Position numbers and translations under genes: made by a program
Part shown: positions 1 through 6,183 of the stretch, piece by piece
Layout: each line of letters opens with the position of its first letter
Numbering within the stretch: position 1 is the stretch's first letter
The notes under the pieces: generated by a model
What the model was told of the DNA's origin: nothing
Databases searched by the model: none
Seen by the model: only the letters and a program-made list of their open reading frames with translations
IMG/VR virus record: IMGVR_UViG_2617270985_000007
DNA length: 6,183 bases
From: a virus
Lineage: Duplodnaviria > Heunggongvirae > Uroviricota > Caudoviricetes
Strand: one strand, 5' to 3'

Positions 1-1131
1 TCAAATGACCAGTTTTTTCCATTCCTTACCGCGTGCGTCGTTGTAAATATCGGTCATTTTTTGATTCGAATGGCCCAGCAAAATTTTGGTATCAACCCCC
101 TGCTCTCTGAACAATCGCTCTGATAAAGATCTCTGCTCATGGAAAGAGGGTGGGGTGCCATTAGCACGCCAGTTGTAATCCACAGAATCCCGGGCTTTTT
201 TAAATGCAACGGTTAATGTTGCTGGCTTAACCATCCCGCCGCGCTTAGCTGTCCCTTTCGCGTGATGGTGGTGCAATAGCCACGGACTAAGAACGCAATC
301 GCGGCAGGATGACACCACATCATCTAGGGTGAGATTTAATTTATCGCAACGCAGAGCCAGAGGGATGGCAATCCGGGTTCCTGTTTTTTGCTGTTCGACA
401 TGAAGATAACCATCCCGGATATCCGAAAATTGCATTTTGCAAATATCTGAAAGGCGCTGGCCTGTCATCAGTGCCAGCAGCATACCGCGCTGTAAAAAGT
501 AACCATCCTTTTCCGCTGCGTTATAAATCATCATCCACTCATCAAAAGTCAGTCGCTGTCTTGATATCCGCACCTGCGGTTTTTTTGCCGATTCTGCAGG
601 GTTAAAGCCTGGCGGGACATCGCCCGTTTGCTGAGCTTCCCGGAAAACATCGATCAGTACCTTCCTGAAAATTTGTCCCATTCTGTTATGTCCTCTGGCC
701 TTGTACTCTTCCAGTACTGATACCACATCTTTTACGGTTATGGCATCTAACGGTCTGGTGCCAAAACGTTCATCAAATACCCTGAGAGGGGCCGCTTTCT
801 GTTTCAGCGTGTTGAGTTTGATCTCGCCGTTTTCATATCTTTCCTGTTGAATTTTTCTGTAATTATTCAGAAAAATGGTAACGGTTGATGAACCGCCGGT
901 ATCACTAATAATTTTCTCCTGCAGACTGAGCATTTGTTCCATTTGCTGCCGGGCAAGACGGCTGTTCGCTTCTGCTGCAATAGTTTCTGCCAGTTTCTGG
1001 TCAATACTGCCGAGACCGTGATTTTTTCCTGTTATGGGATGCCTGTAACGCCAGTAAACTTTGTTATTTCTTTTGTCAAAATACGGAGATAATCCCGGAA
1101 CATTGGTTTTATATTTTCGCGGGCGCGCCAT
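1..1131 (-). CDS. int: Lambda-family tyrosine recombinase (prophage integrase), 376 aa
   Basis: Full-length ORF whose translation aligns by eye along its length with lambda Int: N-terminal arm-binding region (RHPITGKNHGLG vs lambda RDPRTGKEFGLG), catalytic-core blocks LMTGQRLSDICKMQFSDIRDGYLHVEQQKTGTRIAIP, TPPSFHEQRSLSERL, LLGH, and a C-terminal Tyr in MTDIYNDARGKEWKKL. A GAGGA Shine-Dalgarno lies about 9 nt upstream of the ATG at 1131. The 5' end is overlapped by the upstream xis ORF, as in lambda. Confidence 0.95.
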   Translation of the reverse strand: MARPRKYKTNVPGLSPYFDKRNNKVYWRYRHPITGKNHGLGSIDQKLAETIAAEANSRLARQQMEQMLSLQEKIISDTGGSSTVTIFLNNYRKIQQERYENGEIKLNTLKQKAAPLRVFDERFGTRPLDAITVKDVVSVLEEYKARGHNRMGQIFRKVLIDVFREAQQTGDVPPGFNPAESAKKPQVRISRQRLTFDEWMMIYNAAEKDGYFLQRGMLLALMTGQRLSDICKMQFSDIRDGYLHVEQQKTGTRIAIPLALRCDKLNLTLDDVVSSCRDCVLSPWLLHHHHAKGTAKRGGMVKPATLTVAFKKARDSVDYNWRANGTPPSFHEQRSLSERLFREQGVDTKILLGHSNQKMTDIYNDARGKEWKKLVI

Positions 1132-1421: not shown

Positions 1422-3893
1422 TTAAAAATCAGCCTGGTTCGGGATCAGTTTTTGCCAGATAACTGAAACGTATTTTGCCTGGTAACGGGCGTCATCAAGT
1501 GCATTATGGCGCTCACCTTCGAATGGAATAGCCGTTCTGGCATCGAAGTCTATGGCTTTCCCCAGCTCAACGATTGTGCGTACATCGCGATCGTTGTAGT
1601 AACGCCACGGGCAGGGGATCCCCTGCCGTTCGTATGAACGGCGCAAAATCGTGTTGTCGAAGTTGGCTCCATTTCCCCAGACCTGAACAAAAAATTCACC
1701 GGAGTTTTCGTCGATAAATTCCCGCAATTGTAACAGTGCATCATCTAACGGGATTTCATCGGTCATAATGGCAGACTGCGCTTCACGTGATTGCTTCAGC
1801 CACCTTTTAATGACGTCACGATCAATGACTCCGCCAGCAGTTTCCAGATCGATAGTCTTACTAAATTCCGGTCCCATATCTCCGGTTTGCGGATCGAAAA
1901 ATATTGCACCTATTGAGATAATCGGGGCATCAGGATTTTTTCCCATGGTTTCAAGGTCGATCATTAGATGGTCACACGTCCTGCTGGTGGATGTGATAAC
2001 GTGATGACCGTTCATCGTAATTAAGGGATCTGCCGTCTCGCCAGTTTCACTATCGCTGGCGTGATCCTGAGCGCTACCAGCATTCTCCTTGTGTGGATGT
2101 TCAGCGCCTTCCATTTCCTTCGGATCATTTTCCTGAACTTCAACCTGATTCTCTTCATCGAATGTTTCCTGGTATGTTGCGTCACCCATCACCGCGCCAC
2201 AATCAGGGCAGTTGCCGCCACCGCTTTGACCGCAGGCGGTGCAGACTTTTTCCGGTTCCTGTTGCGCTACTGGCTCAGGTTGTTTCGTTTCTGGCTCGTT
2301 TTGTTGCGTATTTGGGCTGTTTTGTTCCGCTTTCTGGTCGTTCTGTTCCGATTCTTGCTGGTTCTGGTTTACAGAATCGCGGGTTTCAATCCCCTTTACC
2401 CATTTCGGATCATTCGGGTCGCTAATCCCTGCAACAAATTCTCCGCGAGAGGCAGCAAGCAACTTATCGGCGTCAGGCTGGCTGATATTGGCTGCCTGCA
2501 TAATTTTGTTTACTTCGTCAGCGGTAACTTTTACCGGCTCTGGTTGTGCGGTCGTGTCAGATGCACCAGTATTTTGTTGTGAACCTGAGTACGTGCCGTT
2601 TTTACGTGCGAAGTATTCCTCTTTTGTGATTTCCGTAGCTCCCAAGGCTAGTGCTTTTTCCAGACCAGAAAGTTTGTTTGCGCGACCGTATTTTTCGCCA
2701 TCCTTGTCGGTGAAGAGGAAGTAGAACGGCCCCTCACGCTCTACAGATGGTTCGACTTCCACTTTGCATTCGGTTTTTTCGTTGCCCGGAATTGCCGTTT
2801 CCACTGCATCAGTTTCTGGTACTGGCGACGAGAGAGTATCAGTTGCGCTCTGATTTCTTCCTTCATCTTCAAACACGCCCTTTGTAGTCAGGTATTCAGT
2901 AATGTATTTGTTCAGTGCCACAGGGTCTTTGTGAATGTCGATCGGACGTTCACGGACAAGGCCAAAAATAGTCTGGCGGTCGTAGCGAAGGGCATCAGGC
3001 TGTTTGCGCATTGATGCCGAGATACGCTTCCAGTCTTCGCGGTCGTTGTCGATAACTTCATTTTTTGCCCAGCGATGGATGCTGCCGTCAATGTTTCCGG
3101 CATCCACATCACCAGGCCAGAGAGCGTAGGCCAGTTCGTCATCCAGTGTTTTCCATGTCTGCTTGTATTCGCGATGAATGGCAGCAATGACCGGGCTGAT
3201 TTTTCCTGTTGAATTTTCAGTGTACTGTTGATTGGCTCTGGCGCGGGCGAGATCAACAACAGACGTGTATTTTCCGGTTTCCTTGCGTTCACCTTCGCGA
3301 CGTTTTTTCCAGATGCGCATCTCTGCCTGAATTTCGGGCCATTTAGCACCAGGAATACATTTATGCTTAACCCACCCAATGGCGTGCAACTTAAGCTCCG
3401 GATACATGGCGTTAACTTCTGGCATTTTCATCAACGCTTCAACGATATGTCCGTCGAATGTTGCCATGTCTTCCTGCAACAATTCCTGTGCGCTAATAAC
3501 CATATCAACGGTGATGTTTTCACATGTGTCGAACTTAACCATGACAGCGTTCTGTACTTCAGGGGCCAGCTTGTCAAAAGTGACGTTCATCGGATCGGAT
3601 TCAGTCTCAACCGGGACAAAAGATGCAGACTCCTCATCCCAGCGGTTTTCCTGCATATATTCAGCATCCCATGAATCGAGGGCTGGGCGGGGTATGCCAG
3701 GTTTATCCTCGCAGATAATAAATTTATAAGCGCAGTCCTGAGCAGCCGGATAATGTTCCAGGAACTGCCAGTGAAATTTTGCTCGAGCACGGCGTTCGTC
3801 GCCAGCTTCAATGGCTGTGGCTACAGCCACCGCGCTTTCTTCCCTTGTTGCCAGTTCGTCAGGAATAGCGGCGCAAATAAAGACTTTACTCAT
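1422..3893 (-). CDS. Prophage exonuclease, 823 aa: N-terminal region of the kind usually annotated exodeoxyribonuclease VIII-like, a C4 zinc ribbon, and a C-terminal DnaQ/PolIII-epsilon-like DEDDh 3'-5' exonuclease domain
   Basis: Long uninterrupted ORF upstream of xis in the pL-operon orientation. The C-terminal ~185 aa carry the three DEDDh motifs: Exo I MIDLETMG, Exo II VWGNGANFDNTIL, Exo III HNALDDARYQAKY. CTACGQSGGGNCPDCG (aa 551-566) is a C-x2-C-x7-C-x2-C zinc ribbon. Acidic Q/E/P-rich linkers flank the ribbon. A GAGG lies about 10 nt upstream of the ATG at 3893. Confidence 0.9.
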   Translation of the reverse strand: MSKVFICAAIPDELATREESAVAVATAIEAGDERRARAKFHWQFLEHYPAAQDCAYKFIICEDKPGIPRPALDSWDAEYMQENRWDEESASFVPVETESDPMNVTFDKLAPEVQNAVMVKFDTCENITVDMVISAQELLQEDMATFDGHIVEALMKMPEVNAMYPELKLHAIGWVKHKCIPGAKWPEIQAEMRIWKKRREGERKETGKYTSVVDLARARANQQYTENSTGKISPVIAAIHREYKQTWKTLDDELAYALWPGDVDAGNIDGSIHRWAKNEVIDNDREDWKRISASMRKQPDALRYDRQTIFGLVRERPIDIHKDPVALNKYITEYLTTKGVFEDEGRNQSATDTLSSPVPETDAVETAIPGNEKTECKVEVEPSVEREGPFYFLFTDKDGEKYGRANKLSGLEKALALGATEITKEEYFARKNGTYSGSQQNTGASDTTAQPEPVKVTADEVNKIMQAANISQPDADKLLAASRGEFVAGISDPNDPKWVKGIETRDSVNQNQQESEQNDQKAEQNSPNTQQNEPETKQPEPVAQQEPEKVCTACGQSGGGNCPDCGAVMGDATYQETFDEENQVEVQENDPKEMEGAEHPHKENAGSAQDHASDSETGETADPLITMNGHHVITSTSRTCDHLMIDLETMGKNPDAPIISIGAIFFDPQTGDMGPEFSKTIDLETAGGVIDRDVIKRWLKQSREAQSAIMTDEIPLDDALLQLREFIDENSGEFFVQVWGNGANFDNTILRRSYERQGIPCPWRYYNDRDVRTIVELGKAIDFDARTAIPFEGERHNALDDARYQAKYVSVIWQKLIPNQADF

Positions 3894-3986: not shown

Positions 3987-4178
3987 TTAAAGACCTGCCG
4001 GGATTTCGATATTATCCTGGTGAATAACTTTATCGACCGGGTAACAGTTACCGGGAATTTTCTGTTCGGTTGCTGCAGTCATACACTCCTGCATTGTCCT
4101 GTGAACACTGACTGCAATATCAACTGGCTCTCCGGAAACAAGAAAAACTGTCAGAACAAGCGCAAATGCTGAATTCAT
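3987..4178 (-). CDS. Hypothetical small protein (63 aa) with an N-terminal hydrophobic signal-peptide or transmembrane segment; function unknown
   Basis: ATG at 4176-4178 (minus strand) is preceded by AGGA with about 8 nt spacing and overlaps the stop of the upstream ORF in an ATGA arrangement. The translation MNSAFALVLTVFLVSGEPVD... has a hydrophobic N-terminus followed by a polar region with two Cys. The six-frame track extends this ORF to 4232 (81 aa), but that start lacks an SD and would overlap the upstream ORF by 58 nt. Confidence 0.5.
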   Translation of the reverse strand: MNSAFALVLTVFLVSGEPVDIAVSVHRTMQECMTAATEQKIPGNCYPVDKVIHQDNIEIPAGL

Positions 4179-4363
4179 TGTGCACATCCTTTTGGCATCA
4201 GACGTAAACGAGCCAGCATTGAAACAATGCATATTTTATTTAATAGCTCCCGTTCTTGTTTTCTCTTGTTAATGGCATCTTCAGTAAATACAGGGTTACT
4301 GATAGTGACACCAATTTCAAAACAACCTTCAGACGTATTAACGTTTGGTAATAACGTTTTCAT
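4175..4363 (-). CDS. Hypothetical small protein (62 aa), basic central region (KRKQERELLNK); function unknown
   Basis: ATG at 4361-4363 (minus strand) is preceded by GAGGA with 7 nt spacing. Its stop overlaps the start of the downstream small ORF (ATGA coupling). Same strand and orientation as the exo-xis-int operon. No recognisable domain by eye. Confidence 0.45.
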   Translation of the reverse strand: MKTLLPNVNTSEGCFEIGVTISNPVFTEDAINKRKQERELLNKICIVSMLARLRLMPKGCAQ

Positions 4364-4462
4364 TATCGCGTCCTCAACAATGAATTTTGTGATGCAGTGC
4401 CTGGTGCCTCCAGGTGACGTTAACCAGTTAACAATTAACGCCGGATACCTTCTGCCCGTAAG

Positions 4463-5599
4463 GTGAATGGTAAGGCGCTTTCAGCGGATATAACACTGAC
4501 GCCGAAAGATATTGGTACGCTTAACTCAACAACAATGTCATTCAGCGGTGGTGCTGGTTGGTTCAAATTAGCAACGGTAACCATGCCACAGGCGAGTTCT
4601 GTTGTTTCAATTACGTTGATTGGTGGCGCGGGATTTAACGTGGGGTCACCTCAACAGGCAGGTATATCTGAACTTGTTTTGCGTGCAGGTAATGGTAATC
4701 CGAAGGGGATTACTGGTGCTTTATGGCAGCGCACATCGACAGGGTTTACAAATTTTGCCTGGGTCAATACATCTGGTGATACTTACGATATTTACGTTGC
4801 AATCGGAAATTATGCGACTGGTGTAAATATTCAATGGGATTATACCAGTAATGCCAGCGTGACGATTCATACGTCACCAGCATATTCTGCTAATAAGCCG
4901 GAAGGGTTAACGGACGGTACAGTTTATTCACTCTATACGCCATCAGAGCAGTTTTATCCGCCTGGCGCACCAATCCCGTGGCCATCAGATACCGTTCCGT
5001 CTGGTTATGCCCTGATGCAGGGGCAGAGTTTTGACAAATCTGCTTACCCGAAACTTGCAACCGCTTATCCGTCAGGCGTGATCCCTGATATGCGTGGCTG
5101 GACGATTAAGGGCAAACCTGCCAGTGGTCGGGCCGTATTGTCTCAGGAACAGGACGGCATTAAATCGCACACCCACAGCGCCAGCGCATCCAGTACGGAT
5201 TTGGGGACGAAAACCACATCGTCGTTTGATTACGGCACTAAATCCACGAATAACACCGGGGCGCATACGCACAGTGTGAGCGGTACAGCCGCAAGTGCCG
5301 GAAACCATACTCATAGTGTCACAGGCGCATCAGCAGTCAGCCAGTGGTCACAAAATGGGTCAGTACATAAGGTAGTGTCTGCGGCCAGTGTGAATACAAG
5401 TGCTGCAGGAGCGCACACTCATAGTGTCAGCGGCACAGCTGCATCTGCAGGTGCTCACGCACATACTGTCGGTATTGGTGCTCATACGCACTCTGTTGCG
5501 ATTGGCTCACATGGACACACCATCACCGTTAACGCTGCTGGTAACGCGGAAAACACCGTCAAAAACATCGCATTTAACTACATTGTGAGGCTTGCATAA
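4463..5599 (+). CDS. stf: Side tail fibre protein, C-terminal receptor-binding module (378 aa as drawn); probably a 5'-truncated gene fragment
   Basis: Translation contains the conserved phage fibre-tip block [48 protein letters not shown], followed by repeated H-x-H motifs (HTHS x4, HAHT, HGHT) typical of T4 gp12/gp37-like and lambdoid Stf tips. The ORF opens with GTG at 4463 immediately after an in-frame TAA (4460-4462) and has no SD, so this is likely the 3' part of a formerly longer gene. The first in-frame ATG is at about 4535. Confidence 0.8.
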
Positions 5600-6183
5600 T
5601 GGCATTCAGAATGAGTGAACAACCACGGACCATAAAAATTTATAATCTGCTGGCCGGAACTAATGAATTTATTGGTGAAGGTGACGCATATATTCCGCCT
5701 CATACAGGTCTGCCAGCAAACAGTACCTATATTGCACCGCCAGATATTCCGGCAGGCTTCGTGGCTGTTTTCAACAGTGATGAGTCATCGTGGCATCTCG
5801 TTGAAGATCATCGGGGTAAAACGGTTTATGACGTGGCTTCCGGCGACGCGTTATTTATTTCTGAACTCGGCTCATTACCGGAAAATGTCACCTGGTTATC
5901 CCCGGAAGGGGAGTTTCAGAAGTGGAACGGCACAGCCTGGGTGAAAGATGCAGAAGCAGAAAAACTGTTCCGGATCCGGGAGGCGGAAGAAACAAAAAAC
6001 AGCCTGATGCAGGTAGCCAGTGAGCATATTGCGCCGCTTCAGGATGCTGCAGATCTGGAAATTGCAACGGAGGAAGAAACCTCATTGCTGGAAGCCTGGA
6101 AAAAGTATCGGGTGTTGCTGAACCGTGTTGATACATCAACTGCACCTGATATTGAGTGGCCTACGAACCCTGTCAGGGAGTAA
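5599..6183 (+). CDS. tfa: Tail fibre assembly protein (Tfa family chaperone), 194 aa
   Basis: Complete ORF starting [39 protein letters not shown]..., which matches the N-terminal signature of enterobacterial lambdoid Tfa proteins as I recall them (TfaQ/TfaR-like). A GAGG lies 8 nt upstream. The start ATG overlaps the stf stop (TAATG at 5597-5601), the canonical stf-tfa coupling. The stop TAA is the last three bases of the window. Confidence 0.93.

Follow-up and report, generated by a model that had tools for sequence, protein, structure and literature searches.

Gene Content and Flanks of the Prophage Remnant

The stretch of DNA analyzed here (6,183 nucleotides, hereafter the window) is 100% identical to L671:1539-7721 (NCBI assembly GCA_000703965.1), where it is flanked by ompW on one side and by host transporter, usp, and porin genes on the other. 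Since host genes flank both ends, the window represents essentially the whole of a 6.2-kb prophage remnant. Its left end, which adjoins ompW in L671, is formed by a tyrosine integrase gene of 376 aa (positions 1-1131, minus strand), recognized by its open reading frame and by the Pfam domains Phage_integrase and Arm-DNA-bind_1. On the same strand follow the genes for an excisionase of 82 aa (1109-1357; open reading frame, Pfam Exc, and the same annotation in relatives) and for an exonuclease of 823 aa (1422-3893), the latter with an open reading frame carrying YdfE_N/YdfE_C and a Rv2179c-like DEDD exonuclease domain in Pfam and annotated as exonuclease in the relatives L004 and L005. The minus-strand genes are completed by ydfD (DUF1482, 3987-4178), which encodes 63 aa according to the call of the source genome and was assigned via Pfam and its annotation in relatives, and by dicB (4175-4363), whose open reading frame, Pfam DicB domain, and dicB annotation under 100% matches identify a cell-division inhibitor of 62 aa. 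The plus strand carries stf', the 3' 1.15 kb of a side-tail-fibre gene (4449-5599), as recognized by its open reading frame, a Pfam tail-fibre domain, and alignment to relatives, followed at the right end of the remnant by a complete tail fibre assembly gene tfa of 194 aa (5599-6183; open reading frame and Pfam). The stf' frame is open from 4439, and its first start codon is a GTG at 4463 (open reading frame 4463-5599, 378 aa), for which neither a usable ribosome-binding-site spacing nor a promoter was found. No repeat common to the two ends of the remnant was found, so that an att core is not derivable.

Between dicB and the first start codon of the truncated stf frame lies a gap of 99 bp (4364-4462), which an initial reading of the letters and open reading frames (the sequence-only reading) had delimited correctly. 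This gap consists of 83-85 bp of the dicB 5' leader (4364 to about 4447) joined to stf coding sequence.

The Gap Contains the Joint of a Large Internal Deletion

The sequence-only reading had proposed that the gap could be a recombination or deletion scar, and that alignment with full-length stf genes and related prophages would locate the breakpoint; this alignment placed it at 4446-4448. Positions 4100-4450 of the window matched about 4000 complete E. coli genomes, the best of them with 100% identity up to 4448-4449 and under annotated dicB and ydfD genes, while the right part of 4150-4750 matched thousands of tail-fibre genes, only from 4437-4443 rightward. As a whole, however, 4150-4750 was spanned across the joint in none of the 5426 complete E. 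coli genomes, and the joint was present only in the source assembly L671. A 37-mer over the joint had no match among the GTDB representative genomes, which is uninformative for a collection of one genome per species, and a 17-mer gave chance matches in unrelated phyla only. Followed past the joint in intact relatives, the left flank continues toward dicF (L004) and the right flank belongs to a full-length stf (L001). An intact prophage contig of 44.7 kb carries both sites, separated by about 34.9 kb and with their relative orientation unchanged. Moreover, DicF (RF00039) gave no match in the window at E <= 1, whereas in the intact sequence a match of 72.5 bits was found past the breakpoint, at a distance of about 90 nt.

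Base-by-base comparison with L004 and L001, together with the extent of the 100% matches, assigned TA (4446-4447) and C (4448) as the bases common to both parents. The window reads GCCGGA-TA-CCTTCTG at the joint. The intact leader of L004 reads GCCGGATAC to the left and AGAGAATCC to the right of the joint position (with longer left context, AATTAACGCCGGATAC before AGAGAATCC), and the intact stf of L001 reads GGTCGGGTAC before CTTCTGCC (in longer context, GCGAATGGTCGGGTAC before CTTCTGCCCG). The window combines the left side of the leader with the right side of stf, i.e., AATTAACGCCGGATAC followed by CTTCTGCCCG, and its scar sequence is GCCGGATACCTTCTGCC. The homology common to the parents comprises TAC only (imperfectly, CGG-TAC).

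With flanks that are distant and co-oriented in intact relatives, and with a joint that is absent from them and has a short crossover homology, the gap marks the place at which a lambdoid prophage, integrated next to ompW, underwent a large internal deletion. On its own, such a scar is ordinary prophage decay. As compared to an intact relative, about 35 kb are absent, including dicF, ydfABC, the immunity region with dicBp, the replication and lysis genes, and nearly all morphogenesis genes. The sister assemblies L672 and L673 share the stf'-tfa-host flank of the window with 99.9% identity, and at the same stf TA their left partner is the start of the gene after a trkH-like gene (GATAGTCTAC joined to CTTCTG), preceded by lysis genes. 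Since at this chromosomal site the sister genomes keep lysis genes and a trkH-like gene fused to the stf TA, the remnant probably arose by two successive deletions, both ending at this TA.

The proposal of a scar thus holds for the gap as a whole, given the intact relatives, but not for the two palindromes within it to which the sequence-only reading had drawn attention. The joint is located 14 nt to the right of the GTTAAC-N2-GTTAAC motif and 32 nt to the right of the palindrome at 4400-4414; with the breakpoint at 4446-4448, both palindromes fall entirely within the homology on the dicB side, so that they are not the scar and were not produced by it.

The Palindromes Are Hairpins of the dicB Leader RNA

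Of these palindromes, CCTGGTGCCTCCAGG is located exactly where it had been placed, at 4400-4414, whereas GTTAAC-N2-GTTAAC (GTTAACCAGTTAAC) is present but lies at 4419-4432 instead of 4417-4430, a 2-nt error. Its two GTTAAC half-sites occupy 4419-4424 and 4427-4432, and a third TTAAC at 4435-4439, which had been missed, forms the true longer inverted repeat with 4416-4423. The expectation by chance was estimated from 5000 dinucleotide shuffles of the 99-bp gap. A perfect 5-bp inverted repeat with a loop of 3-8 nt occurred in 31.5% of the shuffles, so that the palindrome at 4400-4414 (hairpin B, see below) is not significant by itself; a 6-bp inverted repeat with a spacer of 0-12 nt was found in 16.5%, and a palindromic hexamer repeated within 12 nt in 0.12%. 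The non-chance nature of the palindromes rests on their conservation and covariation among relatives.

The minus-strand RNA of 4355-4462 folded at -29.1 kcal/mol (z = -2.5) into three hairpins. Hairpin A (4416-4442, minus strand), GGCGUUAAUU-GUUAACU-GGUUAACGUC, is a stem of 10 bp including three G.U pairs, found in the fold and backed by compensatory changes in a Klebsiella copy; GTTAAC-N2-GTTAAC (4419-4432) corresponds to its 3' arm and loop. Owing to the three G.U pairs, it pairs fully only as minus-strand RNA. Hairpin B (4400-4414, minus strand), CCUGG-AGGCA-CCAGG in the fold, belongs to the most conserved core of the RNA family described below (UCACC-GGGAGGCACCC-GGCACC). Hairpin C (4359-4384, minus strand), UUCAUUGUUG-AGGACG-CGAUAAUGAA, is a minimum-free-energy prediction that applies to the truncated leader only; it would enclose the dicB Shine-Dalgarno sequence and AUG, whereas the intact leader puts this stretch in a long closing duplex instead. 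In the fold of the intact leader, positions 4379-4399 (minus strand) provide the 3' strand of this closing helix, CACUGCAUCACAAAAUUCAUU, whose partner AAAGUGAAUUUUGUGAUGCGGUG, just after the DicF terminator, is deleted in the window. No terminator-like site was detected at 4400-4442 on either strand, and hairpin B followed by CACUGCAUC does not make an intrinsic terminator. Taken together, the palindromes are not DNA-level sites but represent, in the minus-strand (dicB-sense) transcript, two hairpins (A and B) of a structured RNA module. In the window this module is a relic, because its 5' half and DicF are gone and it has no promoter.

Two further functions put forward by the sequence-only reading, a regulator operator and a promoter-associated site of the small-gene operon, would place the role of the palindromes in the DNA. 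A DNA operator, e.g., for DicA or DicC, or a secondary dicB promoter would agree with the rarity of a GTTAAC repeated 8 bp apart (0.12% of shuffles) and with a promoter upstream of dicB that was suggested in an older study, as far as that study is relayed in the 2023 dicBF paper. However, the pairing is kept while the stem sequences change (33 different stems), the G.U pairs function only in minus-strand RNA, and the second GTTAAC falls in a loop, of which CUGG is the conserved part. Furthermore, no promoter-like site was found on either strand of 4150-4750, as compared to 1.1 expected, in agreement with the earlier statement that no sigma-70 -35/-10 pair is visible, and the 2023 study reports dicBp as the only promoter of the operon. 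Because stem sequences change under preserved pairing, G.U pairs are present, and no promoter-like site exists here, we consider it very unlikely that the palindromes act as an operator or promoter element.

The Leader Module in Relatives and Its Putative Affiliation to STnc100

The intact leader of L004 folded at -70.5 kcal/mol into a multi-stem structure, closed by a predicted duplex of about 25 bp (AAAGUGAAUUUUGUGAUGCGGUG / CACUGCAUCACAAAAUUCAUU) that would join the sequence directly after the DicF terminator with the sequence just before the dicB ribosome-binding site. In Rac-SA53 and in Shigella Stx phages, the hairpin-bearing segment recurs with 81-98% identity at a distance of about 20 nt before kilR. 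It also precedes a terB-like gene in P7 and D6, and a further copy is carried by a Klebsiella phage. KilR, which is annotated as Kil and inhibits FtsZ, is an unrelated protein. Among the kilR, P7, D6, and Klebsiella-phage copies, compensatory changes occurred in both hairpins; for hairpin B, the variants were CCGGG/CCCGG in the Klebsiella phage and CCGGG/CUCGG in P7. A scan with variant cores recovered at least 133 copies (95 unique) in at least 120 phage contigs, many of which carried several copies, in some cases spaced 253 nt apart. An anchored hairpin A stem of at least 7 bp preceded the core in 64 of the 95 unique copies as compared to 1.7% of shuffles; the stems comprise 33 different sequences, and CUGG is conserved in the loop. 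For the 3' strand of the closing helix, after hairpin B, a perfect 8-nt partner (8/8) was present upstream in 53/95 copies as compared to 1.2% of shuffles; the helix was represented by 20 distinct sequences, and the partner was always followed by AAUC or AAUG.

Comparison with the Rfam model STnc100 (RF02076), whose gathering threshold is 47 bits, yielded a match of the window at 4400-4451 on the minus strand (21.8 bits, E = 0.15) that covers model positions of about 90-140 only. The intact dicF-dicB spacer matched over the full length with 34.5 bits, and the Rac and P7 copies scored 43-43.8 bits; like the window fragment, all of these lie below the threshold. The common variant-core copies, by contrast, are bona fide STnc100 (69-175 bits) and are often located just after tRNA genes. 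The Rfam alignment pairs GAUGCGGUG with CACUGCAUC. The core hairpin of the family is found in the window as UCACCUGGAGGCACCAGGCAC with a compensatory U-A for G-C, and the preceding hairpin covaries; the 5' strand of the closing helix is deleted in the window, and the helix is present and covarying in intact relatives. Since the scores of the subfamily are below the STnc100 threshold, the family assignment rests on the shared core and architecture, from which the dicB-leader module appears to be a divergent, sub-threshold relative of STnc100. The RNA is a divergent member of a known but functionally uncharacterized family, and detection of canonical STnc100 in the literature is by PCR only.

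The 2023 dicBF study showed that RNase III and RNase E process the dicBF transcript, RNase III having been mapped only 5' of DicF, and found no operon promoter besides dicBp. With regard to the predicted fold and the covariation, we propose that the closing duplex would act as an RNase III-type processing and translation-control element, through which the toxic gene would be separated from the stable RNA that precedes it, namely DicF or, in other phages, tRNAs. In the literature searched, we found no description of the structure of the dicF-dicB spacer, or of the placement of such leaders with a long closing duplex before division-inhibitor genes.

Both Endpoints Recur as Joints at Single Dinucleotides

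The leader end of the deletion was compared across at least 80 IMG/VR loci with an identical DicB, in which the sequence 5' of UAUCCG(G/A)CG fell into a canonical class and 8 unrelated partner classes (in another count, 8 partner classes in the 77 dicB loci listed), with non-canonical joints in 11 of the loci listed. Further partners of the leader TA are a truncated DUF968 gene in the complete genome L005 and stf in the window, which brings its unrelated partners to at least 10. In 7 of the 8 classes the partner is a 5'-truncated gene of the rightward/late operon in normal orientation, so that these joints are simple deletions. The eighth class (L136) is located within the operon of dicB itself. 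For each partner, intact copies have a near-copy of TATCCGG on the deleted side. The leader site itself reads GGATAC (CCGGA-TA), not GGTACC, and is located 4-5 nt from the foot of the 10-bp hairpin A.

The stf site, GGG-TA-CCTTCTGCCCG, which contains GGGTACCTTCTGCCCG, behaved similarly. At least 119 loci had the sequence to the right of the joint, 97 of them with the canonical and 22 with a non-canonical left side; the latter fell into 18 partner classes, all ending in NTAC at the joint except for one ending in CAC. The partners are upstream late genes (terminase, protease, portal, J, H, the stf N-terminus, and others), and as the continuation of the partner gene was never found downstream, the stf joints are not insertions. 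Prophages of the DLP12-like, Qin-like, and ompW types, whose integrases differ, all show the joint, which argues against one particular integrase. The Qin prophage of K-12 was considered as a textbook example of the stf scar and rejected, since K-12 stfQ is a different allele at the joint. Truncations at other positions of stf were scattered singletons, and anchoring at the stf/tfa boundary gave about 7 singleton endpoints over 1.1 kb as compared to 14 loci within 5 nt at the hotspot, a rough control only, as the very mosaic fibre family mixes mosaic boundaries with scars. Altogether, about 14-18% of the sampled copies are scars at two single-dinucleotide positions; these recurrence counts are conditioned on the retained flank, the frequencies are rough, and the sampled loci are at least those listed. 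Both endpoints of the window deletion are thus recurrent fixed-position joints in E. coli prophages, with single-dinucleotide precision. In the literature accessible to our search, we found no report of recurrent TA joints.

On the stf side, all 13 resolvable events as well as the window (15 stf-side events in another count) fit a crossover in one TA with a microhomology of 1-8 nt. Likewise, all 9 events on the leader side are compatible with an exchange inside a single TA. Even where no more than 1 nt of homology flanks the crossover (L437, L359), the TA used does not change, and the joints always retain the version of the fixed site. The 20 intact partner sites have the consensus GGG-TA-YC-SG, with T in 19/20, A in 17/20, C at +2 in 14/20, and G at +4 in 13/20. 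At +4, stf has T and the leader has A, neither being the partner-enriched G. Perfect GGTACC is present at 3 partner sites, and the two hotspots have no extended motif in common beyond CSGG(N)TAC. With regard to the idea that joints form at the outermost usable site, there is no other perfect GGTACC in the arms of the window; a second GGATACA lies at 3400, where the sampling could not see joints.

Besides deletions, the stf site took part in a precise reciprocal inversion. The joints GGGCGCTG-TA-CCTTCTG (L362) and GGTCGGG-TA-AGTGCCG (L677) correspond to both products of a single exchange between stf and a site in the portal gene, without any base lost or gained. L362 has the portal sequence in antisense to stf, and IMG sample 3300029469 is the source of both contigs.

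A GGTACC in a late gene served as control. Among the copies listed, it was canonical in 117/118 as compared to 97/119 at the stf site, which makes it about 20-fold colder, and its single aberrant joint consists of ATAC joined to C. Since this site is cold, the motif alone is not sufficient. A restriction-type cleavage at any GGTACC was rejected in view of the cold control and of the leader site, which reads GGATAC; a KpnI-type 3' GTAC end with fill-in would fit the stf joints, but the control GGTACC is cold. An exchange with a 4-nt stagger, as by a gyrase-type enzyme, was likewise rejected, because the hybrid ATAC of L437 (ATGA x GTAC) does not fit the segregation of a 4-nt heteroduplex. The flanks on the deleted side were nearly never joined to foreign DNA (108/110 and 185/185), but geometry alone predicts the same. 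This polarity was not counted as evidence, because deletions lose that side and there is little prophage DNA outside the sites.

Candidate Mechanisms of the Recurrent Joints

The deletion at the TA, the RNA-hairpin nature of the leader palindromes, and the recurrence of both endpoints jointly make up the best explanation of the locus, to which we assign a probability of about 0.85. For the hotspots, we favor an explanation that is unproven, namely a precise exchange at the central TA of GG-TA-CC-like sequences, filtered by selection for large inactivating deletions. That such a site-preferring exchange, as yet undescribed, would yield precise deletions and inversions in E. coli lambdoid prophages, with stf and the dicB leader as its strongest sites, and would, in place of random decay, shape which remnants persist (e.g., int-to-dicB plus stf'-tfa) is put forward tentatively and is more doubtful than not. 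The exchange could be catalyzed by an enzyme with a 2-nt stagger at the central TA, either a conservative site-specific or site-preferring recombinase or a nuclease, for which stf and the leader would be strong and the partners weak sites; the window would then be the product of a strong site crossed with a strong site, and selection would keep large inactivating deletions. The finding that all stf- and leader-side events fit an exchange in the same TA, even with 1-nt homology (L437, L359), is in line with such an enzyme, as are the enrichment of the partner sites for a +4 G that is the base of neither hotspot and the three perfect GGTACC partners. Moreover, the inversion is reciprocal to the exact base, with both joints in sample 3300029469, and the lone aberrant joint at the control GGTACC also shows ATAC joined to C. 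On the other hand, there is no candidate enzyme, the sites are unlike Pin/Gin sites, and the prophages concerned differ in their integrases. Conservation is concentrated around the center, unlike in known serine-recombinase sites, the control GGTACC is about 20-fold colder, and the hotspots share only CSGG(N)TAC. We regard this enzyme as conceivable, with a likelihood somewhat below even.

Microhomology of 1-8 nt is also expected from end-joining or template switching. The joints could accordingly stem from RecA-independent illegitimate recombination, by template switching or microhomology-mediated end joining, guided by local DNA structure, so that the leader end would be set by the foot of hairpin A and the stf end by small CGGG/CCCG or ACCTT/AAGGT stem-loops. 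Such microhomology is present at every joint, the version of the fixed site is always retained, and a distance of 4-5 nt separates the leader site from the base of a stable 10-bp hairpin. In E. coli, arrested forks and palindromes are established hotspots of deletion; Bierne et al. reportedly described one at terB in 1991, and Glickman and Ripley are said to have described palindrome-linked deletion in 1984. Yet the stems at the stf site are weak (4-5 bp) and stf is the hotter of the two sites, events with 1-nt homology reach the same phosphodiester, and a perfectly reciprocal inversion is unexpected from slippage or single-break end joining. We consider illegitimate recombination possible, at clearly less than even odds. 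As a third source, a Pin-family invertase may have made the deletion at an stf crossover site or quasi-site: pin genes commonly adjoin tfa, PinQ, PinR, and PinE act in trans, and Pin-family enzymes exchange at a 2-bp core, with Cin using quasi-sites. However, the pix sites of e14, TTGGTTTGGGAGAAGG and CCTTCTCCCAAACCAA, which were found de novo and agree with published PinQ sites, have an AAACC-NN-GGTTT core that is absent from both hotspots. An inverted copy of the stf site was searched for within 9 kb downstream in 60 loci and none was found, the best having 18/30 matches, so that the stf site does not bound an invertible segment; a Pin invertase is rejected as extremely unlikely. The remaining probability falls to mixtures of these processes or to something else.

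Significance and Comparison With Known Systems

The dicF-dicB spacer carries a conserved, covarying RNA module that is also found before other genes with toxic or host-modulating products (kilR and the P7 terB-like gene) and whose canonical STnc100 relatives are found after tRNA genes and in tandem arrays. This offers a testable structural hypothesis, in which the expression of division inhibitors would be uncoupled from upstream stable RNAs, and it gives a context for STnc100, a family of uncharacterized function. Prophage decay is usually treated as random deletion followed by selection; here, two dinucleotides were joined independently to dozens of partners, and at least one precise reciprocal inversion took place. 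Should these joints be due to a specific enzyme or structure, prophage domestication would become mechanistically predictable and open to experiment.

As for the operon, the window resembles Qin-type dicBF operons in the gene order dicB-ydfD-exonuclease, and its positions 4364-4448 are 100% identical to the dicB-proximal 85 nt of the dicF-dicB spacer in about 4000 E. coli genomes. In contrast to these operons, its spacer ends 85 nt before the dicB ATG, where it is fused to stf, and DicF, ydfABC, and the DicA-controlled promoter are missing. The leader shares with the STnc100/PasD family of prophage sRNAs the order of a closing helix followed by GUGAAU, internal hairpins, a variable-stem hairpin, and then UCACC-GGGAGGCACCC-GGCACC, and both STnc100 and the dicB/kil-leader branch are prophage-borne and multi-copy. 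The branch differs from STnc100 by CCUGG/CCAGG in hairpin B and by its UUGUUAACUGG loop; furthermore, it forms the 5' leader of division-inhibitor genes instead of a free-standing sRNA gene.

With respect to the joints, the prophage hotspots resemble the Int-promoted deletions of lambda at att and the action of Cin at quasi-cix sites in that one fixed endpoint is combined with many weak secondary sites over a short core, and in that both deletions and inversions arise. Unlike in those systems, no att core was found, the sites are not invertase sites, and the common core is TA only. Deletion hotspots of the terB and palindrome type in E. coli likewise have an endpoint fixed by a structure-forming sequence and short homologies; the prophage hotspots are distinguished from them by a reciprocal inversion and by single-phosphodiester precision with 1-nt homology.

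Leader module in other gene contexts

The two-hairpin leader module found before dicB also precedes kilR, annotated as Kil protein, and likewise lies ahead of a terB-like gene of P7, neither of which resembles dicB in sequence. It follows that the module and the gene downstream of it move separately. Copies were located in Rac-SA53 (L206, 1501-1570), Shigella phage 75/02 Stx (L207) and P7 (L208, 1501-1553), and in Rac-SA53 a DicF-like sequence lies just upstream of the module (41.1 bits, below threshold). Leader sequence was also detected in records of phages from other hosts: a 95-nt stretch near the end of the record of the Aeromonas jumbo phage AP1 (MT713136.1, 250058-250152; match H81) shows 100% identity to the E. 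coli dicB leader, and the record of Actinobacillus phage vB_Apl-pPE4 (match H84) carries a Rac-like leader copy. These two copies may be due to contamination, to chimeric assembly in the records or to real transfer.

Unusual deletion joints

At the leader site, one of the two TA positions recurrently used as deletion endpoints, the deletion in L136 (IMGVR_UViG_2617270976_000006, ~1300-1430) joins ...CAGTTCCGC to TATCCGG, and GCGTTAA is common to the leader and to the intact partner of this joint. The far endpoint apparently falls in a 5' untranslated region, just past a promoter-like sequence of dicB's own leftward operon; the deletion would remove ydfABC and dicF and bring dicB immediately after the operon promoter. 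At the stf site, the second such position, L381 (IMGVR_UViG_2737471849_000007, ~4100-4125) displays a complex joint in which ~10 extra bases (TCAACGTTAC) are placed between the end of the partner homology and the stf sequence, and a clean two-parent exchange is thus not true of every stf-site event. Among 118 copies of the unrelated control GGTACC site, the sole aberrant joint, in L848, connects ...CTGATAC to CGGCTGG, and the junction within the hexamer is once more at its TA(C).

Within the window, the 7-mer GGATACA of the intact leader hotspot recurs at 3400-3406, inside the exonuclease gene. A 79-aa ORF at window 4227-4466 (+) runs opposite dicB and continues through the whole gap between dicB and stf, crossing both the conserved hairpins of the leader RNA and the deletion joint; it is unsupported as a gene.

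In L671, the 45-nt interval separating ompW from the integrase gene, immediately to the left of window position 1, contains TCTGCAAAAC(C) three times in tandem (1495-1535). They may represent integrase arm-type or att-associated repeats; a matching core is absent from the other end of the remnant.

Comparison with Rfam families

The full-length match to Rfam IS009 at window 5942-6140 (+) (225.8 bits, E = 3e-56) lies wholly inside the tail-fibre-assembly (tfa) coding sequence; therefore, despite its 'sRNA family' label, the IS009 model is largely a conserved piece of tfa. In the set of loci L565 (457-981), L577 (1810-2334), L610 (4463-5452), L564, L552 and L573, canonical copies of STnc100, the family of which the leader module is a divergent relative, are found in tandem arrays of 3-5 copies with a 253-nt period and in positions directly after tRNA gene clusters. 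Because of this tandem arrangement and the position directly after tRNA gene clusters, our results suggest that canonical STnc100 is a repeated processing or leader cassette rather than a single sRNA gene.
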